From the NCBI GenBank assembly GCA_031459915.1, contig JAVKHO010000004.1, forward strand, positions 64,001-128,000: a stretch of DNA of 64,000 nt, in the 5' to 3' direction. The translations under genes were made by a program, and so were the position numbers. Within the stretch, counting starts at the first letter, position 1. Every line of letters begins with the position of its first letter. This DNA comes from Candidatus Tepidifontimicrobium thermophilum. GTDB taxonomy: Bacteria > Sysuimicrobiota > Sysuimicrobiia > Sysuimicrobiales > Sysuimicrobiaceae. The notes beneath the pieces are model-generated. The model searched no databases, was not told where the DNA came from, and worked only from the letters and a program-made list of their open reading frames with translations. Shown piece after piece: positions 40,239-60,810 of this stretch.

Positions 40239-40240
40239 CC

Positions 40241-44787: not shown

Positions 44788-45360
44788 ATGGGTGTCGGGA
44801 TGACGCGGGCCCTCCTCGTCGCCACGGTTCTCCTGCTCGCCGGGGTCCCCGGCGGACTGCGCGCCCGGGCATACGAGGTGCGGACCGTGGGTGGCTGGGA
44901 GCGGGAGCTGCGCGCGGGAGCTGTAGTCCGCACCGCGCCCCCGTCCCAGCAGATCTTCTTCCGGGTGGAACGGACCGCCGACGGCCGGTACCGCAACGCG
45001 TCGCAGGGCCTCCTGCTGAGCCCCCGCTGCGAGATCCTGGACCCCTCCGGGAAGCCCACCGGGCTGGACGCGTGGCTCTGTCCGGTCGACCCCGACAAAT
45101 CCCGCTTGCAGGTCCCTTTGAAGCCTGACGACCCCAAGGCCGTCCTGCCGCTGCGGCGCGGCACGGTGGACGTGGACCTGGACGGAGACGGGGTCACCAA
45201 CGAACGGGGCTACCTGCTCGTGACGGAGACCGCCATCTTCGTGGTGGCCTACAGCGCGCACACCCGCCTGCTGAAGTTCGACTTCGTACGGCTGGGTGAC
45301 CCGCAGAAGGTCCGCGTCCTGCAGACCCTGCGGCGCTACCAGGTACGTGTCGTCCCGTAG
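44788..45360 (+). CDS. Hypothetical secreted protein with DxDxDG motif
   Basis: Signal peptide MTRALLVATVLLLAG...ARA; DVDLDGDG; two Cys. Confidence 0.7.
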   Translation: MGVGMTRALLVATVLLLAGVPGGLRARAYEVRTVGGWERELRAGAVVRTAPPSQQIFFRVERTADGRYRNASQGLLLSPRCEILDPSGKPTGLDAWLCPVDPDKSRLQVPLKPDDPKAVLPLRRGTVDVDLDGDGVTNERGYLLVTETAIFVVAYSAHTRLLKFDFVRLGDPQKVRVLQTLRRYQVRVVP

Positions 45361-45448
45361 GGTCGGCCAGGCGCAGCCTGGCGTAGCCAGCGCCTCCCGA
45401 CTCTCACCGCCTCTTCCCGGCAGGCCGCACGCTGGCCTCGGCCGTGAC

Positions 45449-45926
45449 CTACGGCCCGGGCTGAAATTCGAGGAGTCGCTCCTCTTCTTTGTAGACTCCG
45501 TCAGTTTCGTCAGAGGACTCCTGATACCGCCCCAACACATAAGATCTGAGCCCGAAGAAGGGCTTGCGGCGAAGGGCCCACTCCTCCAGGACCGCGGTCC
45601 CGACCCACAGGGGGATAGTTGACAGCATCAGCGACGCCCAGAGCACCACGAACCATTCCGACGTGAACGCCGCGTCTGACCGTCCGAAACGTACCGACTC
45701 AACCAGGAACGCCACGGCGGCCGCAACCGCGCCGACCGGGATGAGCAGAAGCAAAAAATACACCGTATCCTGTTCGCTGATGCGCGCGGGGGAGATCCAC
45801 TCGCGCGACCCGGGCGATCCGCCTCCGCTCCTGCTCGGGGTCGCGCACGAGGGACAGCAGGTCCGCGAGCGCGGCGTCGATTCCACCGCGGAGCGATTCC
45901 CGGAGCCCGCGGGACCCCTCGCCCAC
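45449..45926 (-). pseudogene. Frameshifted two-TM membrane protein, apparent short paralogue of the N-terminus of the upstream DUF3137-like gene
   Basis: Track ORF 45699..45926 joins the TM-coding frame ending at 45449 if one T is removed from the T6 run at 45753-45758. Confidence 0.5.
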
Positions 45927-45936
45927 GGCCCCCCGT

Positions 45937-47049
45937 TCACCACGGCCTGTGGCGGAGCCGCTCCAGCAGCCGCTCGCCGGGAATCCCGCTTGCCAGGCCG
46001 GCCAGGTACGTCACCCGCAAGAGAGCCTGCAGATCCCCCACGGCCCTGTCGCGGACCCACCGGGCGTCCATGCGGCGCCAGGGGCTTGGTTCCAGAAAGT
46101 CCCTCCACGGAAGGAGTGCGAGTACGTACCCCTCCTGCACGGCCAGGAAAGGCTTCCAGGGAAGTTCGCGGGCGAGCTGCAGGAGGGCACTCCGGACCTC
46201 GAACCCGAGGGCACCGTGGACCCCAGCCGGCTCCGGTGCGTACACCTCGAACCGGCCGTCGAACTCCGGGTCCCCGGTGGGCACCGTGTCCCAGCGGTCG
46301 AGCCCCGACCGCAGCCCGGGTTCCCATTCGGCGAAACGCCCCAGCACCCCCGACCTCGGCAGGACCGCGAGCGGAACGAGATCCGGGCCACCCTCCGCGA
46401 CCGCCACCAGTCCGTAGAACTGGCGCCCGCTGCGCCCCGGCGGCCCGGGCTGCGTGAACCCCCTCCTTTTCGGGATCGCGGACAGGACATCCGCCTCGCC
46501 CGCGACCACGCGACGCGAGTCCAGCTGGAATTCCACGGCGAGCCGGACCGCAGGACGACGGCCTCCGACCAAGAGGTGGACCGTCTGCTGGAAGGGCTTG
46601 CCGAACCGTACGGGGTCGTTGCTCTCCGGCTCGGGCTGGAACGGAACGAATCCGAACGCCGGGCCCAGCGCACCGATCAGCTGGGACCGGATGCGGAGCG
46701 ACTGTCGGTCCCGCACGGGGGCGTAGAGGATCCAAGCCAGGACCAGGACCGGGACGTACAGAAAAGCGGGCACCAGCGGCGACGCGACGAGCCACAAGCC
46801 CAGGTACAGCACCGCGTCCAGGTCCGGCCGCACCCGGGACAGCACGAGCCCCAGCCCCGCGGTCAGCACCCCGACGCCCACCACCAGAGCCGCCAGCGCG
46901 AGCGGGACCAACGCCACCAAGGCAGGTAGCCGGAGCTTCCGACGCTCCGCCTCCAACCCGGAAAGCACCCCCTTCATGGCGGGCAGGACCGCTTCAATCC
47001 GTTCGGCCACCTCACGGTCGAGGGAGTCCAAAATCTGCGGAGGGGTCAC
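45937..47049 (-). CDS. Two-TM membrane protein, DUF3137-like
   Basis: LEAERRK plus two TM, then F.GLV, DPEFDGRFEVYA....A...L pattern. Confidence 0.65.
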   Translation of the reverse strand: MTPPQILDSLDREVAERIEAVLPAMKGVLSGLEAERRKLRLPALVALVPLALAALVVGVGVLTAGLGLVLSRVRPDLDAVLYLGLWLVASPLVPAFLYVPVLVLAWILYAPVRDRQSLRIRSQLIGALGPAFGFVPFQPEPESNDPVRFGKPFQQTVHLLVGGRRPAVRLAVEFQLDSRRVVAGEADVLSAIPKRRGFTQPGPPGRSGRQFYGLVAVAEGGPDLVPLAVLPRSGVLGRFAEWEPGLRSGLDRWDTVPTGDPEFDGRFEVYAPEPAGVHGALGFEVRSALLQLARELPWKPFLAVQEGYVLALLPWRDFLEPSPWRRMDARWVRDRAVGDLQALLRVTYLAGLASGIPGERLLERLRHRPW

Positions 47050-47594
47050 GGCGAGTTCCCTCCTGTCCGCTCCCGCAGGGCAAAAGGGACGATCAGGAGC
47101 AGCGCCTCACGACCCTCCCATGGAGCGACCAGGCCGAACCCGTAGAGTCCCGCAGCGGCTGTGGAGAAAGACACCACCCGCTGGCCCCTGTGCACCCCGG
47201 CGACCGACCGACGGAGGCGGTGCACCAGGTCGCGTCCGGTGACGGGCGTCAGCTGCTGTCCCGGATGAATTCGGAAGACCGCCGCGAACACCTCGACGTC
47301 TCGGGGCAATCCGCGCCACCTCAGACCGTACGCGAACGGGACGGAGGCGCCCGCTGAGAACGTTCCACCGCCCACCGCCGTCCCTTCCACGGACAACCCG
47401 GGGATCTGCTGCGGGCAGAATCCCCGTCCCAGGTCCTCCGGTCTACTAGACACGGGACCCGGCAGGCATCCCTGGCCCCCCGTCACCGGTCCTACGGCCG
47501 TGTAGACCAGGAGCCCCGCGACCACCAGCACGACCGCCACCAGCGTCAGACACCCACAGCCCAGGGCCCCGAACAGCAAACTGCGGCCTGTCAC
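47046..47594 (-). CDS. Single-pass membrane protein with GCGCL motif (paralogue A)
   Basis: VTGRSLLFGALGCGCLTLV..., PEDLGRGFCPQQIPG, GLYGF...VPFAL; GGAGG RBS. Confidence 0.72.
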   Translation of the reverse strand: MTGRSLLFGALGCGCLTLVAVVLVVAGLLVYTAVGPVTGGQGCLPGPVSSRPEDLGRGFCPQQIPGLSVEGTAVGGGTFSAGASVPFAYGLRWRGLPRDVEVFAAVFRIHPGQQLTPVTGRDLVHRLRRSVAGVHRGQRVVSFSTAAAGLYGFGLVAPWEGREALLLIVPFALRERTGGNSP

Positions 47595-47596
47595 GG

Positions 47597-48799
47597 CTAA
47601 CCTCCTGGCCCGTCCTCGCGCATCTCCGCGGGGGCTCGCAGCCGGTCCCGCAGCCGCTGCCGGAGCTCCCGCAGGCGCGACCGGTACCGGTCCAGTTCCC
47701 GCGGGTCGCGGGTCCCCCCCGCGGCCCCGTGCTTGGCAAAGGCGAAGTCGACCGCCAGGTCGTAGTAGGCCCGCAGGTCCCGCCAGGCCCCCACGCCCCG
47801 ACGGGTGAGAGCCTCCCACAGGGCACGGAACCGGAGCGCGGGTGACAGCAGCGCCGGGAAATCCTCCTCTGCCACGACGTCGGTCTCCCCCGACAGCTGA
47901 GCCCGGACCAGGAAAGCCTCCCGTCTCCACGAGAGGTAAGCGATAACTCCGAGGGTGACCCAGGCAGGGGCCTCGAGGAGGCCCCACGTGAGCGGCAGCA
48001 CGACGAACAGGTCGACCCACACGTTCCCACGCGAAAGACGCGTGAGCCACGGGTCCAGGAAGGTGGCGGTGAAGTTCCAGGCGAAGTGCAGGAACACCGC
48101 ACACGCGAACCCTACCAGGGGAGCCGCGACCCTCCCCGCCGGACTTTTCGCCTCCCGCGCGTATCCCAGGCCGGCCCCCGTGCAGGCGGTGTAGGCGGAG
48201 TGGCCCAGCCCGCCGACCAGCGCCCGCGCGTAGAACGACACCGCCAGTCCCGGAAGCCCGCCTCTTTCCAGCGCCCGGAGGAAGTAGTGCACGTTCTCCA
48301 CCGCGGTGAATCCCAGGCCGGCCAGCGCTCCGTACACGACCCCGTCCAGGGTGTTGTTGAACTCGTGGCGCCACAGGAGGGCCACCAGGAGCACGGCGGC
48401 CCCCTTGGCGGTCTCCTCCGTCACCGGCGCCACGAAAGGCCCGACTAACTTTGCCCCCAGCTCCCGACCTAGAACAGCCTGAAGGATCGCGGAAGCCAGG
48501 GAGTTGGCGACGCCCGCACACAGGGTGGCCACCGCGGCACCCCAGAAGAAGGCCGCCAGGAGGAGCCACCCGGGTTCCCGCTCGTGTCGGTCCAGCCACA
48601 GGATCAGCAGGGCGTAGAACGGCACCACGGAAAACGCCGCCGCCGCGCTGAGGAGGAAGGAGGCGACGCTGTCCGCCCGACTGAGGCTCAGGGCGAGGTT
48701 GAGGGCACCCGCGACGACGATCGCACCCGCCAGAACCAGGGCGCCGGCCCAGCGCGCCAGCGGGAAAGCCTCCGGATACCGCAGCTCCTCTGCCGTCAT
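47597..48799 (-). CDS. PrsW-family intramembrane protease (copy A)
   Basis: DRHEREP, EETAK, GFTAVEN, GHSAYT, LHFAWN. Confidence 0.9.
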   Translation of the reverse strand: MTAEELRYPEAFPLARWAGALVLAGAIVVAGALNLALSLSRADSVASFLLSAAAAFSVVPFYALLILWLDRHEREPGWLLLAAFFWGAAVATLCAGVANSLASAILQAVLGRELGAKLVGPFVAPVTEETAKGAAVLLVALLWRHEFNNTLDGVVYGALAGLGFTAVENVHYFLRALERGGLPGLAVSFYARALVGGLGHSAYTACTGAGLGYAREAKSPAGRVAAPLVGFACAVFLHFAWNFTATFLDPWLTRLSRGNVWVDLFVVLPLTWGLLEAPAWVTLGVIAYLSWRREAFLVRAQLSGETDVVAEEDFPALLSPALRFRALWEALTRRGVGAWRDLRAYYDLAVDFAFAKHGAAGGTRDPRELDRYRSRLRELRQRLRDRLRAPAEMREDGPGG

Positions 48800-48806
48800 C
48801 TCCAGG

Positions 48807-49319
48807 TCAGCGGGACCGTGAATAGGAGGCGCGCATGCTGCGAAACACCCCGAGGAGTCCGGAGAACTCGGACTCAGCGGCCTCGCCCGACAGGAAAGTC
48901 ACCTCCGTGACGCCACCGGTTCCGGGAGAGGACCGGATCCAGAACACCATGCGGGTACGAGAAGGGCCCGTACCCCAGCGGGACTCCCCTCCCACGGCCC
49001 ACGGGTGTCCGCCCAGCTCCCACCGAAACCCCGGGCGCCGGTCCAGCCCCAGCAGGTCGCCCAACACACGGCGCGCTGCCTCGCGCGGCCGCAGGCGGCC
49101 CTGCACGGGAAGATCCGGAAGCACCACAAAGCGAGGCGGGCGGAACGGCCCGCGGGCGTGGAAGATCACAAGCCCCAGGTCCTCCGCCCGGTGCACCCTC
49201 CAGGAAGCGGGCCGGAGGATCCGGAATCCCCACTCCGGATCCACGTAAGGCTTCAGGGCTACGACCTGCGACGCGAAGCCGACGAGAAGAAGGGTCGACA
49301 CCAGGCCCGCGTGGATCAC
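48807..49319 (-). CDS. Exported PsbP/DcrB-like protein
   Basis: Signal-like N-terminus, YVDPEWGFRILRPASWRV, C-terminal F..M.ASY helix; GTGA overlap. Confidence 0.6.
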   Translation of the reverse strand: MIHAGLVSTLLLVGFASQVVALKPYVDPEWGFRILRPASWRVHRAEDLGLVIFHARGPFRPPRFVVLPDLPVQGRLRPREAARRVLGDLLGLDRRPGFRWELGGHPWAVGGESRWGTGPSRTRMVFWIRSSPGTGGVTEVTFLSGEAAESEFSGLLGVFRSMRASYSRSR

Positions 49320-50455
49320 GTCCAGGCAATCCCGAGTGACTCCAGACGCGCCCGGAGCTGGACAAGCTGTCCCCTGAGCTGGTCCTCGGAGGCCCCTGCC
49401 GGCCTCCCCCGGGAGGCCCGCCACCGCGCGAAGGCGAGCTCTGCCAGCGTGTCGTAGAACTGGCGGAGAACCAGCCACCCAGCGGGTCCCTTCCGCGTGA
49501 AAGCCTCCCAGAGCCGGCGGGACTTGACCCCACTTGTGGCCACCGCCCGCAGCTCTTCCTCCGTGAGGATTCCCGAGGAGACCAGGTCCACCAGGTGTGT
49601 GCGGATCAGCTCCCGTTCCCGCCGCTCCGCGAGGAAGGCCAGGAGCCCGAGCACGACGAGGGGCGGGAGCAGGATGATCCCGAACAGCACCGGGATCAGA
49701 AACAACTCTCTTTCTCCAACCGCGGCAACGACCGCGAGGTTGCTGGAGTTCCACAGGGCGTGCAGGAAAACCGCCCCGAGATACCCGACCGGTGGGGCTA
49801 CGAACCGGGCCGCTCCCCCGCGCTCGCGCGCGTAGCCCAGGGCAGCCCCCGTGCATCCCGTCCAGACGGAGTGCATGAGGCCTAGGAGGATCACGCGCAG
49901 GAAGAACAGGACGATGAGCGTCCCCAGCCCACCCTCCGTATAGCCACGGCCCAGGTACAGCACGTTCTCCGCCACCCCGAAGCCCAGCCCCACCAGCGCC
50001 CCATACACCAGGCCGTCCGTGAGGTTGTCGAACTCCTCGCGGAGGAAGGCCGCCATGCCGAGGAGTGCCACTCCCTTCGCGGTTTCCTCCACCAGGGGTG
50101 CCACGAGTCCGAGGGTGACCCGGAGCGCCCACTGGGGCCCCAAGACTGCCTTCAGGACAGCCATCCACAGCTGGTTGAAGACAAAGGCGAGCAGCACGGA
50201 CACCGTGGAGCCCCAGAAAAAGGCAGCCAGCAGCAGCCAGCCCGGCTCCTTCTCGTGCCGGTCCAGCCACAGGATGGCGGTGACGTACACAGGCACGGGG
50301 AGCACAGCCAGACCGGCACCGAGCAAGAACGCGACCGGCCCCTCGAGGCCCACGAGGATCAAAAGCACCAACAGCCCCACGAAGCTGAACAGGCCCAGCA
50401 GCGACAGCTGCAGGAACAGGTAGGGGTTCCTCGCCCGGACCGACCCGACCGGCAC
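49316..50455 (-). CDS. PrsW-family intramembrane protease (copy B)
   Basis: DRHEKEP, EETAK, GFGVAEN, MHSVWT, LHALWN; GGAGG RBS before GTG 50455. Confidence 0.9.
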   Translation of the reverse strand: MPVGSVRARNPYLFLQLSLLGLFSFVGLLVLLILVGLEGPVAFLLGAGLAVLPVPVYVTAILWLDRHEKEPGWLLLAAFFWGSTVSVLLAFVFNQLWMAVLKAVLGPQWALRVTLGLVAPLVEETAKGVALLGMAAFLREEFDNLTDGLVYGALVGLGFGVAENVLYLGRGYTEGGLGTLIVLFFLRVILLGLMHSVWTGCTGAALGYARERGGAARFVAPPVGYLGAVFLHALWNSSNLAVVAAVGERELFLIPVLFGIILLPPLVVLGLLAFLAERRERELIRTHLVDLVSSGILTEEELRAVATSGVKSRRLWEAFTRKGPAGWLVLRQFYDTLAELAFARWRASRGRPAGASEDQLRGQLVQLRARLESLGIAWT

Positions 50456-50460
50456 GGCCG

Positions 50461-51021
50461 CTAGCCTCCCATCCACTTGAAGTCCCGCAACATCTCCGTC
50501 AGGGTGCGTTCCCACCGCGGCCACTCCCGCTCCGGCGCCTGGGCCAGGACCAGGTAAAAGACCAGGGTGTCCCCACCGTGCACCGGCGGCCTGGCCACGA
50601 CGGTCAAGAACACCGCCCGCATGGGGATGTCGGCCGCACCCCTCCAGGTCACCTCTCCCCGGACGGTGTAGATCCCCTGACCTTGCGGCGTGATCCGCTG
50701 CCGCAGGCGGACGTCCGCCGACCGGCCGAGTCCCGCTTCGCGCATCAACGTCTCCCGGACCGCCACCTCCGGTTCGAGGTCTCCGCTCAGGCGCGTGCCG
50801 GGGAATACCACGAACGCCGTCCCCTCCCGCGGACGGTCTCGGTAGAAAGCCACCCAGCCGTCCACCGGGTCCTCCTGGATATGCCAGCCGCGGGGATAGC
50901 GAACCGAGAAACGAGCAGAGGGGTCCACGTACACGACCCAATCACTGGAGAAGGGCAGCCCCAGAGCGAGGCTCAGGAAAACCCCCAGCGCACTAACCCC
51001 TCTCTTTCCGGCTACCGGCAC
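50461..51021 (-). CDS. Exported PsbP/DcrB-like protein
   Basis: Signal-like N-terminus, YVDPSARFSVRYPRGWHI, AQAPEREW...L..ML.DF. Confidence 0.68.
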   Translation of the reverse strand: MPVAGKRGVSALGVFLSLALGLPFSSDWVVYVDPSARFSVRYPRGWHIQEDPVDGWVAFYRDRPREGTAFVVFPGTRLSGDLEPEVAVRETLMREAGLGRSADVRLRQRITPQGQGIYTVRGEVTWRGAADIPMRAVFLTVVARPPVHGGDTLVFYLVLAQAPEREWPRWERTLTEMLRDFKWMGG

Positions 51022-51842
51022 AGGGCCTCCTCCCTGGGACGTCCCTCAGTCGGCTTCTGAGGGAGGAAAGCGTGGCTGCGCGCCATGTGCTGGAACACGG
51101 GGACCAAGCTCGGCCACGCCACCCGCTGTGCCTGAAACGCTTTGAAGTGCTTCATCGAGAAGTTGGCCACGCGCGAGTGCAGGTACACACCCAGCAGAAC
51201 CCCGTGCATGGGCTCACCACGACCGTTGGTCCAGGAGGCCTCCAGGAAGGCGGACTCGCTGTCCTGGGGCATGGGCCGGATCTGCAGCGTCTCTACCCGC
51301 AAGTCCGGGTACTGTCTGCGCATGCGCCCCACCAACCCGTCGAGATCCTGTTGGGCGGGCACCACCCGGCCGTACGTCGCCAGCATCCGCGAGAAGGACG
51401 CAGAGCTACCGTCTGACGAATCCTCACCGGGCGGCGTGAAACTCACCCCCGACTCCCCCGGCAACACCCGCCAGCCCGAGGGGTACTGGACGCAGAACTC
51501 CCCGCCCGGGTCGAGGTACCACGAGTAAGAAACCTGAGGCGGCGGGCCCGCAGGCTGGCCGCCGGCAGGTGAGGGCCCCGAAGGCGAAGACGGCCACGGC
51601 TGCCCGGCGGGAAACGAGGGCTGCGGTCCGGGGCGTGCTGGCGTCGCGGGACGCGCAGGCTGCGGGGCCGGCTCCTGGCCGGGCTGCAGAGCGGGAGGGG
51701 GCGGAGCCGGACGCCGGGCGAGCACGTACCACGCCACCCCTCCGATCCCCAGCATCACGAAGAACCCCACCGCCAGGACAGCCAGGATGGCCACCACGGC
51801 CCACGGACTTAGCCCAGCCTGATCGGTGAGTGTCCTCCTCAT
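51012..51842 (-). CDS. Single-pass membrane protein with Pro-rich linker and PsbP/DcrB-like domain
   Basis: TM, PAPPPP linker, YLDPGGEFCVQYPSGWRV, FQAQRVAW...F.HMARS; ATGA overlap. Confidence 0.7.
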   Translation of the reverse strand: MRRTLTDQAGLSPWAVVAILAVLAVGFFVMLGIGGVAWYVLARRPAPPPPALQPGQEPAPQPARPATPARPGPQPSFPAGQPWPSSPSGPSPAGGQPAGPPPQVSYSWYLDPGGEFCVQYPSGWRVLPGESGVSFTPPGEDSSDGSSASFSRMLATYGRVVPAQQDLDGLVGRMRRQYPDLRVETLQIRPMPQDSESAFLEASWTNGRGEPMHGVLLGVYLHSRVANFSMKHFKAFQAQRVAWPSLVPVFQHMARSHAFLPQKPTEGRPREEALCR

Positions 51843-53002
51843 CCCACAAGCCCCAACGCGGCGGCCCGTTCGCGGAGCGCCTGCACCCGTTCGCGGAGCA
51901 CCTGGACATCGCGTCCGGCTTCCCCGCGCCGTTGCCGCCAGAGGGCGAAGGCCAGGTCCACCTCGGCGTCGTACAGCTGCCGCAGCAGGTTCCACGCGCC
52001 CGGCCCCTTTGCGGTCAACACCGACCACAGGCGGCGGCTCCGCTCCCGCGGCCGCGTGAGGAGCTCCACGTGTTCCGGCAGCATCCTGCCTGCCTCCACC
52101 TCCTCTTGCAGGCCCTCTCGGATGGCGGTCACCTCCCGCTTCCAGGCGAAGTACGCCAGGGCCACCAGCAAGAGCAGCGGGATCCCTGCGATGAAGAAGG
52201 ACATCAACGGAACAACCAGGAGCCCCGCGGCACCCGCAGACCGGACCGCGGCCGGAACCGCAAAGCTCGCCAACAGGTTCCAGAGGAAGTGCAGGAACAT
52301 GGCGCAGAAGTAGCCCGCCACCGGAGCCACGAAGCGTGCCGCTCCCTGGCTCTCCCGGGCGTACCCCAGACCCGCTCCCGTGCAGGCGGTGTAGACGGAA
52401 TGGTTCAGGCCGCCCACCACTGCCCGCAACACGAAACCCACAGTCAGGGCCGCGATGCCTCCCTCGCGGAGGAAGCGGGCGAAGTACAGGATGTTCTCCG
52501 TGGCCGCAAAGCCCAGCCCGGCCAGGGCCCCGTACACGATGCCGTCCACGGTGTTCGTGAACTCGCGCCGCCAGAACAGGAAAACGAGCAGAACCGCAAG
52601 CCCCTTGCTGGTCTCCTCCGTCAGGGGGGCCAGCAGGGGCCCGGTCAGCTGTTTGCCCAGCTGAGGGCCGAACACGAGCTGGAAGACCTCCCCGCCGAGG
52701 GAGTTGAAGATCAAGCTGAAGAAGGTGGCCACCACCCCACCCCAAAGTAGGGCTCCGAGCAGCAGCCCCCCCGGCTCCTTCTCGTGCCGGTCCAGCAGGA
52801 GGATCAGGCCCGCGTAAAAGGGCACCACGGACAGCGCGGCGAAACACGCCATGAGGAACCGGCCCAGTCCTCCTGCGGATTGGTAGAAGAGGAGCATCTG
52901 CAGCAGGGCCAGCACGAACAGCACCAGCCCTCCCGCCACAAGCCCCGCAGCCTTCAGGAAGGTGTCCGTGCCGAAGCCTGACCGCGCAGTGCCGGCTGCC
53001 AT
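51839..53002 (-). CDS. PrsW-family intramembrane protease (copy C)
   Basis: DRHEKEP, EETSK, GFAATEN, NHSVYT, LHFLWN. Confidence 0.9.
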   Translation of the reverse strand: MAAGTARSGFGTDTFLKAAGLVAGGLVLFVLALLQMLLFYQSAGGLGRFLMACFAALSVVPFYAGLILLLDRHEKEPGGLLLGALLWGGVVATFFSLIFNSLGGEVFQLVFGPQLGKQLTGPLLAPLTEETSKGLAVLLVFLFWRREFTNTVDGIVYGALAGLGFAATENILYFARFLREGGIAALTVGFVLRAVVGGLNHSVYTACTGAGLGYARESQGAARFVAPVAGYFCAMFLHFLWNLLASFAVPAAVRSAGAAGLLVVPLMSFFIAGIPLLLLVALAYFAWKREVTAIREGLQEEVEAGRMLPEHVELLTRPRERSRRLWSVLTAKGPGAWNLLRQLYDAEVDLAFALWRQRRGEAGRDVQVLRERVQALRERAAALGLVG

Positions 53003-53011
53003 ACTGTGCTC

Positions 53012-53662
53012 CTACTGCAGGGCGAACGGCACCAGCAGCACGACCGCAGGTTGACCGCCCTGAGGGACTGCCAAGACAAACCCGTATAGCCCAGACGAGC
53101 CCCCTTGCGTGTCCAGGGTGTAAAGGGTGCGTCCTGGCTTTTCCACAGGCTGCGGGTTGGTGACGGGGACCACCCGTTCCTGGGACTCGATCTTTACCAC
53201 CAGCGTGACCACCTGAGTTTCCATCCGGCGGACGCCAAAGAGGATCCCCACGGGCTCACCCACCCGGAAGGTCCCGGCTGGCTCCGTGGGCTTTCCGTCC
53301 GGCCCAAGACGCACGGCCATCCCGCCCTCCACCTCCACCCCTGGGACCTGCTGGGGGCAGATGCCCTTACCGAGGTCCTCGGGGCCCCTGGGAGGTGTCT
53401 GGGGGCAGGGACCCGCCTGCGGGCCCGGTGCTGAAGGCTGGGCCGGCGTCGATGGCTGGGCCGGCGCAGGGGCCGGGGGCGCAGGCTGGGACACCGGGCC
53501 CGTGGGTTGAGACCCGGGCTGTGCAGGGGCGGCCGCAGGGGTCGGCGCGGGGGAAGGTTTCGGCCTCGCGAAGACCACCAGCGCGGCCACGACCGCCACC
53601 ACCGCGAGCAGGGTGAGACACCCGCAGCCCAGTCCACCGCCGATCAGCAGGTTCCGGTTCAT
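53012..53662 (-). CDS. Single-pass membrane protein with GCGCL motif and Pro-rich linker (paralogue B)
   Basis: MNRNLLIGGGLGCGCLTLL..., PEDLGKGICPQQVPG, GLYGF...VPFAL; ATGA overlap. Confidence 0.75.
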   Translation of the reverse strand: MNRNLLIGGGLGCGCLTLLAVVAVVAALVVFARPKPSPAPTPAAAPAQPGSQPTGPVSQPAPPAPAPAQPSTPAQPSAPGPQAGPCPQTPPRGPEDLGKGICPQQVPGVEVEGGMAVRLGPDGKPTEPAGTFRVGEPVGILFGVRRMETQVVTLVVKIESQERVVPVTNPQPVEKPGRTLYTLDTQGGSSGLYGFVLAVPQGGQPAVVLLVPFALQ

Positions 53663-54708
53663 CGTCCGACCTCCCGGATCCGGTCGCGATACACCTGCAG
53701 CTCCGCTTCGCTGGCGAGCCCGCGCTCCAGCCGGCGCCGGGCGAAGGCCAGCTCCGCGAGGGACTGGCGCGCGGCCTTCGGGACCGTACCCCACCGGCCC
53801 CGCGCGGCCGCTTCCGCGTACTCCTCGGGGATGTGGCCTTCCCGCGCCTCCACAGGCAGGTAGCGGGCTAGGACGTTACGTTCGTGGCGCAGAGCCCAGG
53901 CCACGATGACCACCAACGCGGCAACCCCTGCCCAGTCGGCCACCGTCCGCACGGCCGCCAGCAACCCGGAAGGGCCCGTTCCGGACCCGATCAGGGCGGC
54001 GAGGGCGTCGTAGGCGGCGTGGTACAGGGCCGCCACCGCGAACCCGCCCACCGGCAGCCACCACGCCGCCGAGCCCGTCAGCCTGAACTCCCGCACCGCG
54101 CCCAGGGAGGCGCCGAAGAGGGCGCCGAAAGCGCTGTGGGTGAGGCCGGTGAGGAGGATGCCGAAGAACATCCCCGCGCTGATGCCGCCTCCCAGTCCGG
54201 ATTTCGAGAGGTCCCACAGGTACACCGCGGACTCCGCCAGGGCGAACCCCGCCCCGACGATCCCTCCGTATACGACCCCGTCCAGGGTCCCGTCGAACTC
54301 GCGGGGAAGGGACCGGAAGAGGGCCAGGATCACCAGGGCCTTCATGCCCTCCTCCACCACCGCGCCGGCAGGGTTGGGTCCGAAGAGCGCGGCGTTCAGG
54401 GCGTGGAAGCTCGCCGGGTAGACGGACATCCGGATCCCCGTCAGGCGCTCCACGATCACGGTCAGCACGGGCGCCGCCACCGCCCCTCCCAGCAGTGCCG
54501 CAGCCAGCACGCTGGCGGGCTCCTTCTCGTGCCGGTCCGCCCAGTAGAGGACGGCCACGTACAGGGCCGTGAGCACCACCACGATGAGGACGCCCAGCAG
54601 GACCCCGCTCCCCCCGGCTTCGAGCGCGCCGGTGAACTCCGGCGCGGGCGACTTCTCGATGGGGAACGGGAAAAAAGGACGGGGCGGGACGGTAAGAAGC
54701 AACTCCAT
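53659..54708 (-). CDS. PrsW-family intramembrane protease (copy D)
   Basis: DRHEKEP, EEGMK, GFALAES, THSAFG, YHAAYD; GAGGAGG RBS. Confidence 0.88.
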   Translation of the reverse strand: MELLLTVPPRPFFPFPIEKSPAPEFTGALEAGGSGVLLGVLIVVVLTALYVAVLYWADRHEKEPASVLAAALLGGAVAAPVLTVIVERLTGIRMSVYPASFHALNAALFGPNPAGAVVEEGMKALVILALFRSLPREFDGTLDGVVYGGIVGAGFALAESAVYLWDLSKSGLGGGISAGMFFGILLTGLTHSAFGALFGASLGAVREFRLTGSAAWWLPVGGFAVAALYHAAYDALAALIGSGTGPSGLLAAVRTVADWAGVAALVVIVAWALRHERNVLARYLPVEAREGHIPEEYAEAAARGRWGTVPKAARQSLAELAFARRRLERGLASEAELQVYRDRIREVGR

Positions 54709-54769
54709 GGCGACCCTCCTCACCTCTGACCGCGTGCGTGTGTGTTCCGCAACACAGCCCCCGCTGGCT

Positions 54770-55147
54770 CTAACGCGCCCCTTCCCCCGGGGGCCTTAAC
54801 CAGGGTCCCTTCCCCTGCAGGAAGGCGTAGGTGTTGACCGCCGCCGCGGCGAACCACGCGAGAAAGCCCAGGAAGTTCCAGCCAAGCCCTCCCAGGGTCA
54901 CCACTCCCGCTAACGTCCGGTTCCCTGTGGCACCCGCGATCAGCATGAACAGCAGGGGCAGGAAGCCGAACACCACCGACAGGCCGACGCCCCAGCCGAG
55001 GGCCCAGGCTGCGTGGCGCCGCACAAGCGGGTGTGGCGGCTTGAGGAAGAACCCCGCGATGGCGATCCACCACAGCCACCACCCCCCGATGGCCACCAGG
55101 CGCTGAACCTGCGTGACCTCCGTACCGTGCTGGCTTTCTAGCGACAT
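54770..55147 (-). CDS. Small multi-TM membrane protein, DUF4870/Tic20-like
   Basis: P.VRRHAAWAL and A..G..P patterns with three hydrophobic segments; GGAGGG RBS. Confidence 0.6.
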   Translation of the reverse strand: MSLESQHGTEVTQVQRLVAIGGWWLWWIAIAGFFLKPPHPLVRRHAAWALGWGVGLSVVFGFLPLLFMLIAGATGNRTLAGVVTLGGLGWNFLGFLAWFAAAAVNTYAFLQGKGPWLRPPGEGAR

Positions 55148-55216
55148 CAGTACCCTCCGGCAACCGGCTCGAAGCCCGGAACGCGGGCCCCCAAGGCCGG
55201 ACGTAACCAGGAGGGA

Positions 55217-55232
55217 CTTAAAACCCGCTTAA
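55217..55232 (-). promoter_or_regulatory. Direct-repeat box 2 (TTAAG-N6-TTAAG)
   Basis: Minus strand TTAAGCGGGTTTTAAG, about 70 bp upstream of the PrsW operon; includes the TAA stop of the regulator gene. Confidence 0.65.
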
Positions 55233-57949
55233 CGCCGGCGGCGGTCTAGCAGGGCGGGACGGAGATAGTCCTGGACGAGCGCCCGGGTCTCTGGCAGGGG
55301 AGCCACGCCGACCTCCTCCCGAAGGCGCTCCTCGAAGTCCCGATAGAAGCGCAGGACGGCCTGCCGGTGGCCCAGGCTCAGGAGGTGTCGCAGGAGGGCT
55401 TGCAGGGCGGGTTCGTGGGTGGGGTCCAGCTCGAGGACCCGCTCCAAGTAAGCGATGCCCTCCTCCGGAGCCGCGTCGCGGCCCGCCTGGTACAGACAGT
55501 GCACTACCCGCCGTTGCAGGGCGTACCGGACTTCGTCCACCGCCGGGAGGTCCACCCCCGGTGCCAGCGGCTCTCGGTACAGCCTCAGAACGGACTTCGC
55601 GTCCTCCTGCTGCAGGGCCGCTTCCAGATCCCAGAAGTCCACCCGGGTGTTCCGCAGCGCGTTCCCCGCCAAGTACGTGGGGACCCGCCAGGGCTGCAAG
55701 GCCCTGCGGAGGTGGTGCAGCTGCACGTGGAGGTTGTTGCGGGCCTGGTCGGCGTCCGCGTCCGGCCACAGCTGGCCCGCTACTTCCTCCAGCTCCCGAC
55801 CCATGACCAGGAGCACCAGCAGGGCCCGGGCCGTGGGCGACAGCGACAGCTCCTCCCCGACACGTGTCAACCGGAAGCGTCCCAGGATCTCCACCACCAG
55901 AGGCGGGACTTCGTCCAACCTCCGCTCGACCGCCTCTTTCCAACCGGCCCGCAGCACCGCCTCGATGGGGTAGGCGTCTGCCAGCTCAGGGCGGTGCGGG
56001 GGAAGCTCTGAGACCGACAACAGGGCCGGCAGGATCCGGGAGCCCAGGGAAGTCAGCCCGCACAGCGCCTCCAGATCCTCTTCGCGTCTCAGGATCCGGT
56101 AGCGGGCCGCGTGGTAATAGGCACGCTCCTCCCGGTCGTAGGGAGGGGAGGGCAGTGAGGCGACGGCTTCGTCCCCTCTTCCGAGGTGCCAGAGGCTGAG
56201 GGCCAACTCCAGCTGGCTCCAGAAACCCCGCGCGGGCCGGACGACCTGGGCGGCCTCGTCTACACAACCCGTCTCTCGCAGGGTCCGGGCCCAGAGCCCC
56301 CGCACCGCGTCCTCAAGCTCCGGGTTCTCTGACGTTTCGGCAAGGGTGACCAGCCGCTCGAAAGGCTCGCATTTCCGCTCCAGGCAGGCCTGCCAGGCGG
56401 CCGCCAGGGCCTCGGCCCAGAAGTTCCGCCCCGGCTGGGCCTGGGCGGTGCGGAAACAGGTCAGCGCCTCTTCCCGTCGGCCTGCCAGCAGCAGGAGGCG
56501 GCCGGTCTGCAGGAGGGTGAGCGGGAGGTTGTGGGAGCGTTCCCGCTCCTGAGCTTCCGCGGTGCGGCGGTTGTACGCCAGATAGTAGTCCAGGTCGCCC
56601 TGTTGCTGCCAGCGGAGGAACGCCAGGTTGTACCCGATGGGGTGGAACACGTAGGGGTCGTCCGCCGGAAGGAGACTGCGGGCTTCCTCCAGGACCGCCT
56701 GGAACCGCTCCAGCTGGCGGGCCTTCCACAACGGCCAGCAGGTCCAGTTCAGGAACCGAGCGGCCGAGTGCGGATCCACACGGGGCACGAGCCTGTACCC
56801 CTCGTCCACCGCCCGCAGCGCAAGCTCCAGGTCCACCTCAGGGGCGTTGTAGGCGATCAACCCCCAGGCCCGGATCGCCACCTCCGGGTCCAGGCGGTCC
56901 GCTTCCCGGGCGAGCCGCTCCAGGCGGTGGAATGCCTCCCCGAGCCGACCCGTCAGGCAGAGGGCCATTCCGTAGCCCAGCCTCCGCCAGGGTCCCCCCA
57001 TCCCCGGCAGGGCTCGACACCACCTGACCAGGGAAGACGGGACGGTGGAAGCGAGATCCAGGGCCGCGGGAGATTCCAGGAGCGCCTCCAGTTCCCTCCA
57101 CAGGGCCGCCCGCAGGTAGGCCTCCGCCCGCAGTTCGAGGGGCAGGTCGGCAGCCCGCCGGCGCACCGACTCCTGGATCTCGGTCCACGCGCAGGCGTGC
57201 AGCACCTCGGTAAACAGGGCGTGGAGGCGGAACCCCTGGGCAGTCCGCTGAACGAACCCCGAGGCCTGGAGCCGCCGCAGGGGACCCTCCGCCAGCTCCT
57301 CCGGGAGGGCCGGCACAGCCGACAGAAGCAACAAAACCTCCCACTCCTGCTGCCCTAAAGACTCGCGCACCCCCTGCGCGAGCGCACTCTGCAGGTCCAA
57401 GGTGCCCGTCAGGGCGGCCACGTGGACGGCGATGGGCCAGCCTCCCGTACGCTCCCAGATCTCGTACGCTCTGGCTCCGTCTGCCAACAGCTGCTGGACC
57501 TCCGCCAGACGGAAGCGGAGGTCGTCTGCGGTCAGGTGAACCAGCCGCCCCGCGGTCCTCGCGCGGGGGAGCTCCGGCCACCTGAGCTCACCGCGGCTGG
57601 CCAGGCCCAGCAGTAGGTTTTCCGAGGGGAGCCGGAGGGAAAGGAGGGTATCCGGGGTCAGGTCGTCCAGCACCAGCACCGTGGGGCTTTCCGTCAGCAC
57701 GCACTGCAACAGCGCCCACGAGGGGAGCCCCGGAAGGCCCAACATCCGTCCCAGCTGTTCGAGGAGGGATCCGGTCGCGGCGTCGGCCCACAACACCCGC
57801 CACCCGTGGGCGCGAAGCCTGTCCGTCCACTGCTGGAGCAGGACGGTCTTGCCGTAGCCGTAGGGGGCCTGCAGCCACACCACATACCCGCCCCGCGTCG
57901 GGAGGGCTTCCAGCAGGCGCGGCCGCAAGACCCAGGTTGCGTGCTCCAT
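55229..57949 (-). CDS. MalT-like STAND ATPase-TPR-wHTH/BTAD transcriptional regulator
   Basis: RPRLL..L, Walker A APYGYGKT, Walker B LVLDD, DLRF, TGGWP; C-terminal LG.F, LWPD, NNLHVQLHHLRRAL, DPTHE, L..E.GV.PLPET (BTAD). Confidence 0.85.
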   Translation of the reverse strand: MEHATWVLRPRLLEALPTRGGYVVWLQAPYGYGKTVLLQQWTDRLRAHGWRVLWADAATGSLLEQLGRMLGLPGLPSWALLQCVLTESPTVLVLDDLTPDTLLSLRLPSENLLLGLASRGELRWPELPRARTAGRLVHLTADDLRFRLAEVQQLLADGARAYEIWERTGGWPIAVHVAALTGTLDLQSALAQGVRESLGQQEWEVLLLLSAVPALPEELAEGPLRRLQASGFVQRTAQGFRLHALFTEVLHACAWTEIQESVRRRAADLPLELRAEAYLRAALWRELEALLESPAALDLASTVPSSLVRWCRALPGMGGPWRRLGYGMALCLTGRLGEAFHRLERLAREADRLDPEVAIRAWGLIAYNAPEVDLELALRAVDEGYRLVPRVDPHSAARFLNWTCWPLWKARQLERFQAVLEEARSLLPADDPYVFHPIGYNLAFLRWQQQGDLDYYLAYNRRTAEAQERERSHNLPLTLLQTGRLLLLAGRREEALTCFRTAQAQPGRNFWAEALAAAWQACLERKCEPFERLVTLAETSENPELEDAVRGLWARTLRETGCVDEAAQVVRPARGFWSQLELALSLWHLGRGDEAVASLPSPPYDREERAYYHAARYRILRREEDLEALCGLTSLGSRILPALLSVSELPPHRPELADAYPIEAVLRAGWKEAVERRLDEVPPLVVEILGRFRLTRVGEELSLSPTARALLVLLVMGRELEEVAGQLWPDADADQARNNLHVQLHHLRRALQPWRVPTYLAGNALRNTRVDFWDLEAALQQEDAKSVLRLYREPLAPGVDLPAVDEVRYALQRRVVHCLYQAGRDAAPEEGIAYLERVLELDPTHEPALQALLRHLLSLGHRQAVLRFYRDFEERLREEVGVAPLPETRALVQDYLRPALLDRRRR

Positions 57950-57992
57950 AAGGTGCAGCGTCTATCCTCGCGCCGCCGCTCGTTTCGCGCGT

Positions 57993-58008
57993 TTAATGCG
58001 ATTTTAAG
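57993..58008 (+). promoter_or_regulatory. Direct-repeat box 3 (TTAAT-N6-TTAAG)
   Basis: TTAATGCGATTTTAAG in the divergent gap between the regulator and PrsW copy E. Confidence 0.62.
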
Positions 58009-58046
58009 CCGGCCTGTCACCACTGTGGAACCGGAGGGCAACAGGA

Positions 58047-58970
58047 TTGCCAGCTCCCGCATGGATCCTCAACCTGTGCGTCCTGGTGTACGCTTTCCTG
58101 TTGTGGTGGCCGGTGCGCCACGAACACCGGTTGCCTGCCCTTTGGGCCCTCCTGGCGGCCGGCGGCGCGGTGGGCGCCATTCAGCGAGCCCTCCTGGGGA
58201 TCCTGTTCCCTGAGTCCGCCGGGTCCTGGCCTCCGTTTGCCGCCGCGTGGGTGGGGGCACCGGTGGCTGCCTGGCGCGGGGGCGTGGAAGAGCTGTCCAA
58301 AGCCGTGGTGGTTCTCGCGATCCGGGCACGGGCCGGCCGGTGGTTCGAGGACGCGCTCCACGGGGTGGTGGCAGGGAGCCTCGTGGGGCTCGGATACGCG
58401 CTAGCCGGCGTGGGACTGGCAGCGTTCAGGGACGCGATGCTGCCGGACGACCCCGGGAGGCTGGTGCACCTGCTCGGAGGTTGCCTGGCGCAGGGAGTCT
58501 ACCCTGCCCTGCTGGGCGCCGCACTGGGATGGACTCCGGCCGACCGCGGCAAGCGGGCGCGTGTCCTCCGGGCGCTGGGCGGAGTCCTGGGCGCGGCGGC
58601 GGGCCACGCTCTGTACCTGGGGTTGGCCCAGGCCTTCCGGCCTGGGCAGGAGCCCTCGGGGATGGCGGTCGCCGGCCTTCTGGCCTTGGAGTGGGGCGGG
58701 GCCGCGGTGCTTGTGGTTGTGTGGGTCTGGGGTGCACGCCGACAGCGGGCGCTGCTGGCCAGCTATCTATGGGGAGAGGTCGCCCTGGGGACCCTCACTG
58801 ACGACGAGTTCCATGCGGTGATCCGCGATGGGAGCCGGCTTGGGGGACCCCTGAGGTCGGCGCTCGTGCAGCTCGCCCTCGCCAAGCGAAGGCTCGTGCG
58901 GGGGGAGGGCCGAGAAGAGGAGGTCCAGGCTTGGCGGGATCGCGTGGCGGCGTTGCGGCGCAGGCGTTGA
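58047..58970 (+). CDS. Degenerate PrsW-family protein (copy E)
   Basis: EELSK kept; the F/Y...E motif reads GYALAG and the first His is replaced (AQGVYP); shares the family C-terminal tail. Confidence 0.75.
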   Translation: MPAPAWILNLCVLVYAFLLWWPVRHEHRLPALWALLAAGGAVGAIQRALLGILFPESAGSWPPFAAAWVGAPVAAWRGGVEELSKAVVVLAIRARAGRWFEDALHGVVAGSLVGLGYALAGVGLAAFRDAMLPDDPGRLVHLLGGCLAQGVYPALLGAALGWTPADRGKRARVLRALGGVLGAAAGHALYLGLAQAFRPGQEPSGMAVAGLLALEWGGAAVLVVVWVWGARRQRALLASYLWGEVALGTLTDDEFHAVIRDGSRLGGPLRSALVQLALAKRRLVRGEGREEEVQAWRDRVAALRRRR

Positions 58971-60805
58971 GAGCCCTCCGGAGGGTCAGCGCACGCGGGG
59001 TGCAGGCGCTGGACGCCGTGGGCCAGCACCTCGGGGTGCCCGTCAAGTGGAAAGACCTCCGGCAGGCGGCAGAAGGCCTCCTGGGCCTTCTTCGGCTGGG
59101 TCCCTGGGGCGCCCTGGCCCTGGCCCTTTTCCTGGCGACCCTGGCCGGGTTCGCGGCGGTGCTACGGGAGCCTCCCGCGCAGCGGGCTCAGCCGCTGGGG
59201 ACGCCCGCCGGCCTCGCGTTGCTCGGCTGCATCGCCGCTGTCTCGTTCTCTCTTCTCCTGTCCGGGATCCGCTCCGCCCATCCCTCGGTCCGCTTCGTGG
59301 CCGGACTGTACGGCCTCTGGTATCTCCTCCTGCCCCCGGTGCTGGCTCTCCCTCGGTGGGTGGCGCTCCTGCCCGCCTGGGCTCTGTACGCGGTCGAAGC
59401 AGCCCGCCTGGCGGCCGACCGGAAAACACCCCTCTGGCTGATCCCCTGGGCTCTGCTGCTGGGACGTCTCAGCCCACCGCTGACGCGGCAGGTGTGGGCT
59501 TCCGTGACGGCCTGGGCCCTTCTGTACTTGGCGGTCGGCACCATTCTCTTCCGGACGGTACGTCGCCCTCCTCCGGAGCGTACGGTGCTGTTCTGGAGCA
59601 TGGCGGGAGTCTACGCCTGGGGTATTCTCCAGAGCCCCGGTCGGTTCGGCGAAGCCCTGCACATGGGCTACTCGGCCCTGTTCACCTTCCTCGGGCTGTT
59701 CTGGATGTGGCTGGCCGCGGACCTGGTGGACGACGCCTCGGAGCTCGCCGAGCGGGCGGTGGGCCGGCTGCGGAGGCTGCTGGGAGGCCGGTGGGGACGC
59801 TACGGGGTCAGCGGGGCTCTGGCGCTTGTGGGAGGCACATCCCTGTTGGCGGCCCTGCTGCCGCGGGTCGTACTGGAGGCCCTGCCGCTACCCGTCCTCC
59901 GGCTGGTGGCGAGGTTCCTCCAGAGCGCCTGGACGGACGGGCTGGCGGTGTGCGGTGCTTTGATGGTGTTCACGGGGGCCGCGACATGGCTGCGGGGGAC
60001 CCGGGATCCCGCGGACGCAGCCGCGGACGGCCTGGCCTCCGGAGTCGTCCTCGTTCTCGTCTACTGGGCCGGGACACAGGCGTGGGCCGGGCTGTCGGAA
60101 GTGGAGGAGCCGTCGGGCTGGTGGCCGCTCGTGCTGGCGTCGGCGCCCGTGCTGCTGGAGGAGTTCAAACAGACGGCCAAGGGGGTGAGGGAAGGCCCTG
60201 CGGCTGCAGCCCTGATGGTGGTGGCGGTGGCCCTCCTGGGGATCGCTGCCACCGCGTTCCAGTTCGTCTCGGACCCGCGCGAGGCTGTGCGGGACACCAC
60301 CCTCTACCCCTTTCTCGGAATGGTGCTGTGGGGGCTTCCACACCTCCTGGTCAGGCTGGTGGCTGGGTGGAACGCGCAGGTCCAGTCGGTTCGCCTGTTC
60401 CTGGTGGGCTACTCCTCGGCCCTGCCGGCGGCCCTCGTCTTCCCGGACCTCCGGAGCGGAGCACCGGCGCTGGCGGTGCTCCTGTGGCCGCTGGCCCTGC
60501 GCGTCAGTGGCCGGCCACGGGGTGACTCCCTCGGCCTGCGCGCGGCTTCCGGGATCTTGCTGGCGAGCGGGACGCTGGCGTTTTTCTACGAGCCCCTGCC
60601 CGTGCCGGTACCCTTCGCTCCTTGGACCGATGCGCTCATCCGGAGGCTTGGGGCAGTGCAGGCTACCGAGTGGCTGAGCTGGGCCCAGCTGGTGGCCTGG
60701 TTGGGAGCCGCCCTGGCCGGAGCGGCCTTCGCGGTCCTCGGCCGCGCGGGCTGGGCCGGTGCGGCGCTGCTGTGGGCCCTGTGGAACCGGCTCTTTCTCC
60801 GCTGA
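58967..60805 (+). CDS. Large polytopic membrane protein of unknown function; start approximate
   Basis: About 610 aa, many Trp/Leu-rich hydrophobic segments; TTGA overlap with copy E. Confidence 0.7.
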   Translation: MRALRRVSARGVQALDAVGQHLGVPVKWKDLRQAAEGLLGLLRLGPWGALALALFLATLAGFAAVLREPPAQRAQPLGTPAGLALLGCIAAVSFSLLLSGIRSAHPSVRFVAGLYGLWYLLLPPVLALPRWVALLPAWALYAVEAARLAADRKTPLWLIPWALLLGRLSPPLTRQVWASVTAWALLYLAVGTILFRTVRRPPPERTVLFWSMAGVYAWGILQSPGRFGEALHMGYSALFTFLGLFWMWLAADLVDDASELAERAVGRLRRLLGGRWGRYGVSGALALVGGTSLLAALLPRVVLEALPLPVLRLVARFLQSAWTDGLAVCGALMVFTGAATWLRGTRDPADAAADGLASGVVLVLVYWAGTQAWAGLSEVEEPSGWWPLVLASAPVLLEEFKQTAKGVREGPAAAALMVVAVALLGIAATAFQFVSDPREAVRDTTLYPFLGMVLWGLPHLLVRLVAGWNAQVQSVRLFLVGYSSALPAALVFPDLRSGAPALAVLLWPLALRVSGRPRGDSLGLRAASGILLASGTLAFFYEPLPVPVPFAPWTDALIRRLGAVQATEWLSWAQLVAWLGAALAGAAFAVLGRAGWAGAALLWALWNRLFLR

Positions 60806-60810
60806 CGGGT

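Follow-up and report, generated by a model that had tools for sequence, protein, structure and literature searches.

The window analyzed here, 64,000 nucleotides of contig JAVKHO010000004.1 of Candidatus Tepidifontimicrobium thermophilum (positions 64,001–128,000, forward strand), contains a tandem array of PrsW-family intramembrane protease genes interleaved with genes for exported and membrane-anchored proteins. This array is the core of an accessory island of ~17.8 kb (window ~44690–62540) that is gained or lost as a unit; the array is conserved among relatives and apparently undescribed. Our favored reading, to which we give a probability of about 0.45, is that the island encodes an activator-induced surface kit, in which PrsW proteases would process co-encoded single-pass proteins and one of the five, PrsW-E, would be non-catalytic. 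An earlier note on the same DNA had proposed the array as a new system, and all its open reading frames (ORFs) are present in the claimed order and strand. Comparisons covered the 12 genomes of the host family (f1, including this 2.6-Mb genome, G000, whose window contig is C28) and, more widely, 94 genomes of the phylum; f5 and f6 are other families, and L-numbers denote loci or metagenome or database records.

The island lies beside tRNA-Ile(GAT) (44610–44686, +), which marks its left border. In G007, G005 and G003 the corresponding site is empty: the tRNA-Ile gene is followed, ~30–60 nt on, by the gene that here adjoins the island on its right, beyond 62540. Seven of the 12 family genomes carry the array (G000, G001, G004, G006, G008, G010 and, partly, G002, where the contig ends), as do metagenome loci L160, L161, L163, L165 and L166; G001, G004, G006, G008 and G010 share the core order of G000, which supports a conserved multi-PrsW locus. 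The island is missing from the other 5/12, and the flanking genes at 44788–45360 and 60811–62457 were not found in any of the five array-less genomes searched. Together with the empty sites, this absence identifies the unit as the ~17.8-kb island; the earlier note was right about the array but placed the system at 45449–60805, short of both ends. At the borders, neither an att-like repeat of the tRNA 3′ end nor an integrase was seen, and the GC content resembles that of the surrounding DNA. Contigs of run X1, from an independent near-identical strain, cover 30/30 bins, 18/22 at ≥99% identity; these contigs may be DNA. Raw reads of a hot-spring RNA run are sparse over the island (bins 0–2.8 deep vs 30 for groEL); most map to the expected strands, and GCGCL-B has a few in antisense. 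RNA runs X3 and X4 gave too few reads for use. The claim that no described system has such a layout stands within open full-text literature (few subscription journals, main texts only), where no description of tandem PrsW arrays or of a TTAAG/STAND-BTAD regulon was found. Additional file 1 of PMC3482391, a PrsW architecture list outside this scope, may list such architectures. A text search for proteases or PrsW gave none in the CSP1-3/Sysuimicrobiota paper (PMC11604079).

Five window proteins, the only five in the genome, exceed the PF13367 cut-off of 23.5 bits (PrsW-A 162, B 151, C 160, D 93 and E 37 bits), in agreement with the five PrsW genes proposed before. Four motifs are described for YpdC/PrsW of B. 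subtilis: EExxK, FxxxE, H and HxxxN/D (excerpt of PMC12943098). All four are intact in prsW-A (47597–48799, −), prsW-B (49316–50455, −) and the core genes prsW-C (51839–53002, −) and prsW-D (53659–54708, −). PrsW-E (58047–58970, +) keeps EExxK and has lost the motif-2 Glu, motif-3 His and motif-4 Asn/Asp. Among aligned copies, complete sets occur in 25/25 A/B/C-type proteins, 9/9 f1 D proteins and 0/9 D proteins elsewhere, where motif 4 is degenerate; they occur in 0/10 E orthologues, all without the motif-2 Glu, and in 0/9 F-type proteins. Four active-looking proteases remain of the five in the earlier note, and by its motifs PrsW-E is a pseudo-protease. In a quick tree with SH-aLRT support, A, B, C, D and E form orthologous clades (99–100), E falling within the D clade on long branches; identity between orthologues is 70–77% for the proteases and 40% for the fast-evolving E. 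The separate clades place the duplications before the split of two genera, so that expansion by tandem duplication holds but a recent date does not. A–E carry a ~100-aa C-terminal helical tail, and a Pfam scan found PF13367 as their sole domain, with no C-terminal toxin domain. Loop charges place DRHEKEP, RREF and YARE inside. This charge pattern suggests that the active sites face outward, with catalytic residues close to the outer side of the membrane; B. subtilis PrsW likewise cuts RsiW on the outside. Among the best 80 of 154 loci, the closest relatives beyond the phylum are for the most part single Chloroflexota genes; of the matches listed, the 74 most distant loci mostly hold lone Chloroflexota PrsW genes without these partners.

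The partner genes are tightly packed with the proteases. The ten junctions from prsW-D to the terminal fragment measure −10 to +9 nt, behind gaps of 81 nt between the STAND gene and a three-transmembrane (3-TM) protein gene and of 61 nt between the latter and prsW-D; prsW-E and the polytopic gene overlap by 40 nt. The 3-TM protein (54770–55147, −), which heads the array operon, had been called DUF4870-like, a name to be dropped: Pfam and NCBIfam profiles, scanned over the window proteins down to E ≤ 0.1, gave no match. GCGCL-B (53012–53662, −), a core gene product, combines a conserved N-terminal GCGC-TM with a Pro-rich stalk and an Ig-like ectodomain; its paralogue GCGCL-A (47046–47594, −) has an N-terminal GCGC-TM anchor and an Ig-like β-sandwich ectodomain. 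The GCGCL C-domain resembles β-sandwich models such as DUF2914 and MG2 (TM-score ~0.6). Three further partners are PsbP-like: psbp1 (51012–51842, −), with a prepilin-like leader lacking Glu5, a TM segment, a Pro-rich stalk and a PsbP domain; the exported psbp2 (50461–51021, −), which matches PF01789 above cut-off (E 1.7e-5); and psbp3 (48807–49319, −), an exported PsbP/DcrB-fold protein. Both the psbp2 match and the match of a joint profile of the three types to the solved PsbP 2xb3 (E 3.9e-5) uphold the PsbP-like labels. GCGCL-B and psbp1 appear to be N-in/C-out anchors with exposed Pro-rich stalks, the N-in topology of GCGCL-B being implied also by a 517-aa protein in L035 that joins PrsW-D, GCGC-TM and Ig domain in one reading frame. 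A complex prediction for PrsW-D (30–349) with GCGCL-B scored 0.14 against a mark of 0.32, which gives no verdict, and was not used as evidence. The psbp1 leader fits a relaxed form of the motif [QEKR]xG|[FLVISA][ST] in 5/5 f1 proteins vs 6/555 background ORFs, Glu5 being absent and the pattern post hoc; it may tie psbp1 to type IV pilus machinery. Separately, type IV minor-pilin genes adjoin an f5 PrsW module (L016:13150–17627) and a regulator paralogue of G003 (L177:1192–1581).

At the distal end, the DUF3137-like 2-TM protein (45937–47049, −) reaches PF11335 only at E 6e-4 in the window, below the cut-off, and its label is borne out by two orthologues above it. What is left at the end of the array (45449–45940, −), previously read as a paralogue fragment, is the frameshifted remainder of a gene for a 2-TM protein. 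It is a distant relation of the DUF3137-like gene and shows weak similarity to a relative's 2-TM protein (E 8e-4). At its frameshift the independent near-identical strain differs by one base. As an observation apart, that strain departs from the window at 45474, 45788 and 61047 by one 16-nt insertion and two single-base deletions, one of the deletions at this frameshift and the other within the oxidase gene.

Linkage between protease and partner is strongest for D. D-type genes, called at E < 1e-60, occur in 15/94 phylum genomes, and in 12/15 a GCGCL gene is adjacent or fused on the same contig, which substantiates the proposed co-occurrence; in the remaining three, D and GCGCL lie at the ends of different contigs (G016), the contig stops after D (G084) or GCGCL is lacking (G031). 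STAND-BTAD, D, GCGCL, C and TM-Pro-PsbP follow one another in this order in f5 as well (L017, L018 and L019); L016, also of f5, has D, two GCGCL genes and C, and lacks the regulator and PsbP gene. C, D and GCGCL also follow one another in a Gemmatimonadota-labelled record (L034), the single case in another phylum. Besides the L035 fusion, F-type PrsW is fused to a DcrB/PsbP domain in L017 and L025, the latter domain being a separate gene in L018, L026 and L110–L112. No longer PrsW-D fusion was found among 8000 candidates of 616–2000 aa, a weak negative, as the 517-aa fusion is below that range. The claim that each protease has its own partner fails, B and A preceding different genes in different genomes; fixed protease–partner pairs are confined to D and, mostly, C.

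A number of further modules accompany these loci. L017:4930–7496 and L018:13355–15868 hold a second module with a motif-degenerate PrsW (QE instead of EE), a DcrB/PsbP protein (fused or split) and an exported trypsin-like protease; this QE-type module is also present in L025, L026, L110–L112, L078, L086, L095, L104 and L106, and is shared with Chloroflexota. A conserved 61–71-aa protein of no known family lies between the PsbP gene and the second module in f5 (L017:7493–7678, L018:13124–13339). In L013, L015, L021 and L022, a third PrsW type stands beside STAND-BTAD regulators, DUF350 and DUF3592, a 178-aa exported protein and vWA/discoidin-like exported proteins, so PrsW–STAND-BTAD linkage recurs with different PrsW subfamilies.

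The candidate activator of the island is a STAND NTPase-TPR-wHTH-BTAD protein (55229–57949, −), the only BTAD gene product of the genome. Its BTAD is above cut-off; its wHTH scores E 0.048 here and above cut-off in 4 orthologues, and its NTPase 33.1 vs a cut-off of 34. A predicted operator box, TTAAG-N6-TTAAG, precedes the 190-aa exported protein gene (44758–44772, +), the array operon (55218–55232, −; −10-like TA 11–12 nt downstream), the divergent regulator/prsW-E pair (57993–58007) and the oxidase gene (62475–62489, −), the last close to the right end of the island near 62540. Each transcription unit is thus preceded by one TTAA-N7-TTAA, making four in the window against 0.00 expected from shuffles; genome-wide there are 5 sites at spacer 7 vs 0–1 at each other spacer from 3 to 12. 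The same box positions recur in L001, L003, L005, L006/7, L008, L010 and metagenome loci L160–L166, where flank is available, and orthologous loci have extra boxes inside the distal array. The regulator family is present in 8/12 family genomes and nowhere else among the 94; TTAAG-type boxes occur in those eight and in none of the four without the regulator. A −10-like TA lies 11–12 nt past the box at 8/21 island sites, including 6/6 array promoters, vs 2/21 on the other side, a geometry like that of AfsR, whose repeats lie 8 nt before the −10 (excerpt of PMC11301090). Given this phylogenetic footprint and the SARP precedent, the regulator probably activates the island through these boxes, and its membership of the system, as originally suggested, is supported by the boxes before all units and their tracking of the regulator. 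Elsewhere, boxes lie ahead of genes for a secreted S8 protease and a lipoprotein-like exported product in G003; other boxes precede a two-component cluster and genes for an S46-like peptidase and a 520-aa exported protein. The f5 modules lack any TTAA box; a GGAACG 11-bp repeat precedes the core in 3/4 f5 loci, next to a different STAND-BTAD family whose adjacent member has a different domain order, and a TA follows 9–10 nt downstream at 4/4 sites.

Homologues of the regulator hint at a second origin for part of the island. Full-length homologues of 39–41% identity are encoded on 16 Thermus plasmid records, and a partial one on a seventeenth. The Thermus megaplasmid BTAD loci (e.g. TTH_RS10180) resemble the island in their 40% identical full-length regulator, in one-mismatch boxes (2/3 loci read) and in adjoining homologues of two island exported proteins, namely the 190-aa protein (E 4e-13) and one of the G008 island (48%). 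YbjN-domain and Pro-rich exported proteins are further neighbors; of four judged PsbP-like by eye, one passes the profile (E 2e-4), and of those judged DUF3137-like none does. Unlike the island, the seven such loci scanned contain no PrsW. We infer that the island merged a Thermus-type exported-protein regulon with the D-GCGCL-C-PsbP protease core. In records L182:5294–12592 (T. thermophilus HB8 pTT27), L183 and L184 the uncharacterized BTAD regulator is accompanied by one-mismatch TTAA boxes and by genes for lipoproteins and for exported Pro-rich and YbjN-domain proteins, which makes them a tractable model of the regulator family.

In the favored reading, the STAND-wHTH-BTAD activator would bind TTAAG-N6-TTAAG before all four transcription units and switch the island on. 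The four intact PrsW proteases, outward-facing and translationally coupled to their neighbors, would clip single-pass proteins of Ig-like and PsbP-like type, encoded alongside them, in the stalk close to the membrane, a juxtamembrane processing that could serve shedding or maturation, and motif-degenerate PrsW-E would act as a non-catalytic partner or modulator. The protease–client part gains support from adjacent glutamic protease–client pairs being a hallmark of processing systems (excerpts of 10.1101/2023.06.07.544157 and PMC11980579). Since the box also stands in front of the gene for an exported oxidase here and of genes for secreted S8/S46 proteases in relatives, the purpose is likely an induced response to envelope threat or competitors.

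Several observations weigh against this reading. The fused forms are motif-degenerate, L035 lacking the motif-3 His and motif-4 Asn/Asp and the F-type proteins their intact sets. Beyond C the array is reshuffled, B being followed by PsbP in most loci and by DUF3137 in L008 and L161; A is present in some genomes only, and GCGCL-A follows it only in G000. G006 lacks psbp1; in G031 a D-type gene occurs with no GCGCL, and in G056 a GCGCL-like gene with no D. By appearance, psbp2 and psbp3 are stalkless proteins with a signal peptide. On the regulatory side, the stand-alone regulator paralogue of G003 has no adjacent box, the GGAACG repeat shows no genome-wide enrichment with a loose pattern, and no PrsW was found in the seven loci scanned around Thermus and other regulator homologues. 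TTAA-N7-TTAA also occurs at pst genes and copper islands, and G000 has five chromosomal OmpR-type regulators, so that another regulator of this type could bind it.

The fusions bear most directly on an alternative that we consider unlikely, though it is the best placed of the rivals: the partners could be accessory or sensor subunits that present peptides, toxins or damaged proteins to PrsW, in an induced immunity or quality-control system of CPBP/Abi-like type. Motif-degenerate fusions fit a complex subunit better than a substrate; PsbP ectodomains diverge faster between orthologues (44–55%) than proteases (70–77%); pairing is loose, and gene order in the distal array shifts as in a variable cassette; and PsbP/MOG1 domains serve as adaptors and immunity-protein fusions in conflict systems (excerpt of PMC3482391). 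The GCGCL-B ectodomain, however, is conserved like the proteases (71%), a Pfam/NCBIfam scan found no toxin gene or domain in the island, and PADLOC 2.0 matched 0/13 array and regulator proteins, the 14th protein, the oxidase, matching only a generic desaturase model.

A circuit in which proteolysis feeds back on the regulator seems improbable. Here a ligand on the Ig-like or PsbP-like ectodomain would let the ensemble of active and pseudo PrsW cut the partner; the released GCGC N-terminal piece would activate STAND-TPR-BTAD, wiring regulated intramembrane proteolysis to an NLR-like factor in place of an extracytoplasmic function (ECF) sigma factor, and the activator would amplify the island together with a secreted protease/oxidase regulon. 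The same D-GCGCL-C-PsbP core is found next to two unrelated STAND-BTAD architectures, whose predicted 11-bp operators differ.

Phosphate starvation offers a different, quite improbable, account of the boxes, in which the island would belong to a PhoB regulon that remodels the surface, with STAND-BTAD a target and not the binder. The fifth site of G000, its only TTAA-N7-TTAA outside the island, lies within pstSCAB, and in every relative examined pstS is flanked by sites of this kind, even where the genome has no BTAD gene. A PhoBR-like pair is encoded at 33626–36171 (its PhoB at 33626–34408), PhoB of the cyanobacterium Synechocystis binds TTAA repeats (excerpt of PMC11126600), and AfsR and PhoP have boxes in common in Streptomyces (excerpt of PMC4415409). 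Gene-oriented flanks nonetheless separate the two groups: non-divergent half-sites read TTAAG in 41/42 island vs 0/28 pst cases, although kin are not independent and the Fisher value is overstated. TTAAG boxes moreover track the STAND family, and f5 modules have no TTAA box at all. TTAA-N7-TTAA is not confined to the island, as pst genes and copper islands have it too. A predicted family Pho box consists of cTTAAC repeats with 11-bp period, upstream of pstS and between pstS and pstC (G000:C14:29008 and 30330–30355; L120, L121, L124, L126, L129, L133, L135, L137, L139 and L144); it was not found in pstS regions fetched from four f5 genomes (L140–L143, L145 likewise). The PhoB/PhoR-like pair, present by wHTH in all 12 family genomes, is a candidate pst-box binder. 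Copper/heavy-metal islands of f5 and f6 (L151, L152 and L153–L157), with OmpR-type two-component genes, have multiple TGGTTAAG 11-bp repeats, which are likely a CopR-like operator.

More doubtful still is that the PrsW paralogues are site-1 proteases acting in trans on anti-sigma factors encoded elsewhere, their neighbors merely tuning them. This is the only characterized PrsW function (excerpt of PMC12943098), and other contigs hold 9 sigma-70/ECF matches above cut-off. A–D share with the B. subtilis PrsW (YpdC)–RsiW–SigW system the PF13367 family and the four motifs, and their single-pass neighbors have an anti-sigma-like topology; unlike that system, there are five paralogues with a ~100-aa C-terminal helical tail, and island partners have almost no cytoplasmic domain. 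Window proteins score 43–50 bits against the PrsW equivalog NF033739 (cut-off 225). As the earlier note had stated, no ECF sigma/anti-sigma pair is linked: TIGR02937 has no match on contig C28 and 19 elsewhere. B. subtilis prsW itself is not adjacent to sigW, so lack of a linked sigma factor does not rule out action in trans; absence of the island from 5/12 family genomes would, however, leave sigma factors protease-less there. Least probable is a mostly neutral tandem expansion of one PrsW–partner cassette, now decaying and with the function of a single copy. In its favor, distal genes are frameshifted or truncated here and in several relatives, intact copy number ranges from 3 to 4 and in-situ reads are few; against it, A, B and C are separate orthologous clades over two genera with 25/25 active sites intact, and boxes are kept at all promoters.

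Three other known systems were compared. PrsW-dependent polymorphic toxin export (excerpt of PMC3482391) likewise links PrsW to, and in relatives fuses it with, a downstream exported domain; here, however, Ig-like or PsbP/DcrB-like domains take the place of nucleases or deaminases, and tandem proteases with a dedicated activator replace a toxin–immunity pair. Myxosortase/JDVT-CTERM systems (excerpts of PMC11980579 and 10.1101/2023.06.07.544157) similarly place a glutamic-type intramembrane protease next to a Cys-motif/TM client in conserved adjacency, as for D-GCGCL in 12/15 genomes. Their enzyme is CPBP (PF02517, without a match at E ≤ 0.1 in window proteins), not PrsW (PF13367), and the GCGC-TM is an N-terminal, N-in anchor in all full-length GCGCL proteins aligned, not a C-terminal tripartite tag. 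AfsR and large SARPs of Streptomyces (excerpt of PMC11301090) share the OmpR-type wHTH, BTAD, STAND NTPase and TPR, and 11-bp direct repeats with a −10-like element close behind them, a box outline shared with Pho boxes; the island regulator differs in having the NTPase first and wHTH-BTAD last, and its predicted targets are membrane proteases and exported proteins instead of antibiotic genes. By these features the island would most resemble protease–client systems plus PrsW site-1 proteolysis under an AfsR-like switch, and it appears to belong to none of the PrsW–RsiW–SigW, toxin-export and myxosortase systems.

To our knowledge, PrsW proteases are widespread and only one substrate, RsiW, has been characterized. 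The island names candidate PrsW substrates or cofactors, GCGCL-B for D and TM-PsbP for C, and its natural pseudo-proteases and fusions make PrsW specificity testable in E. coli or Thermus. It also provides a predicted operator for an uncharacterized STAND-BTAD family, of which the 40% identical member in the tractable Thermus thermophilus HB8/HB27 opens a way to the regulator's ligand and regulon. If protease output does feed the regulator, this would be a proteolysis-to-NLR signaling route without sigma factors.

Three further genes complete the island. The exported 190-aa all-β protein (44788–45360, +) has an invariant Cys pair and a DxDxDG motif; its AlphaFold2 model is confident (pLDDT 92), and structure comparison gave no clear fold match, the best (Z 7.3, root-mean-square deviation 5.2) being within background, and no usable Atlas match. 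The 624-aa polytopic membrane protein (58931–60805, +) is of no known family, its model (pLDDT 51) having no Foldseek match at E ≤ 0.001. Its homology to the polytopic neighbor of the f5 module is unproven: BLASTP was not significant, and profile–profile comparison gave 23% (reversed control 1%). The product of the gene at 60811–62457 (−) is a TAT-signal flavin amine/L-amino-acid oxidase family protein, with a twin-arginine leader in 4/4 copies checked and L-amino-acid oxidases as best solved relatives. Elsewhere in the window, a tmRNA (tag VNQPVLAAAA) lies immediately 3′ of smpB (28166–28522 and 28559–29035). The stretch 36238–41266 holds a coxMSL-like aerobic carbon-monoxide-dehydrogenase cluster, with a large subunit that we take to be such from its AYRCSFR motif, and after it a gene for an XdhC/CoxF-like protein that includes a YHS domain; an excisionase-like HTH may open the coxM frame.

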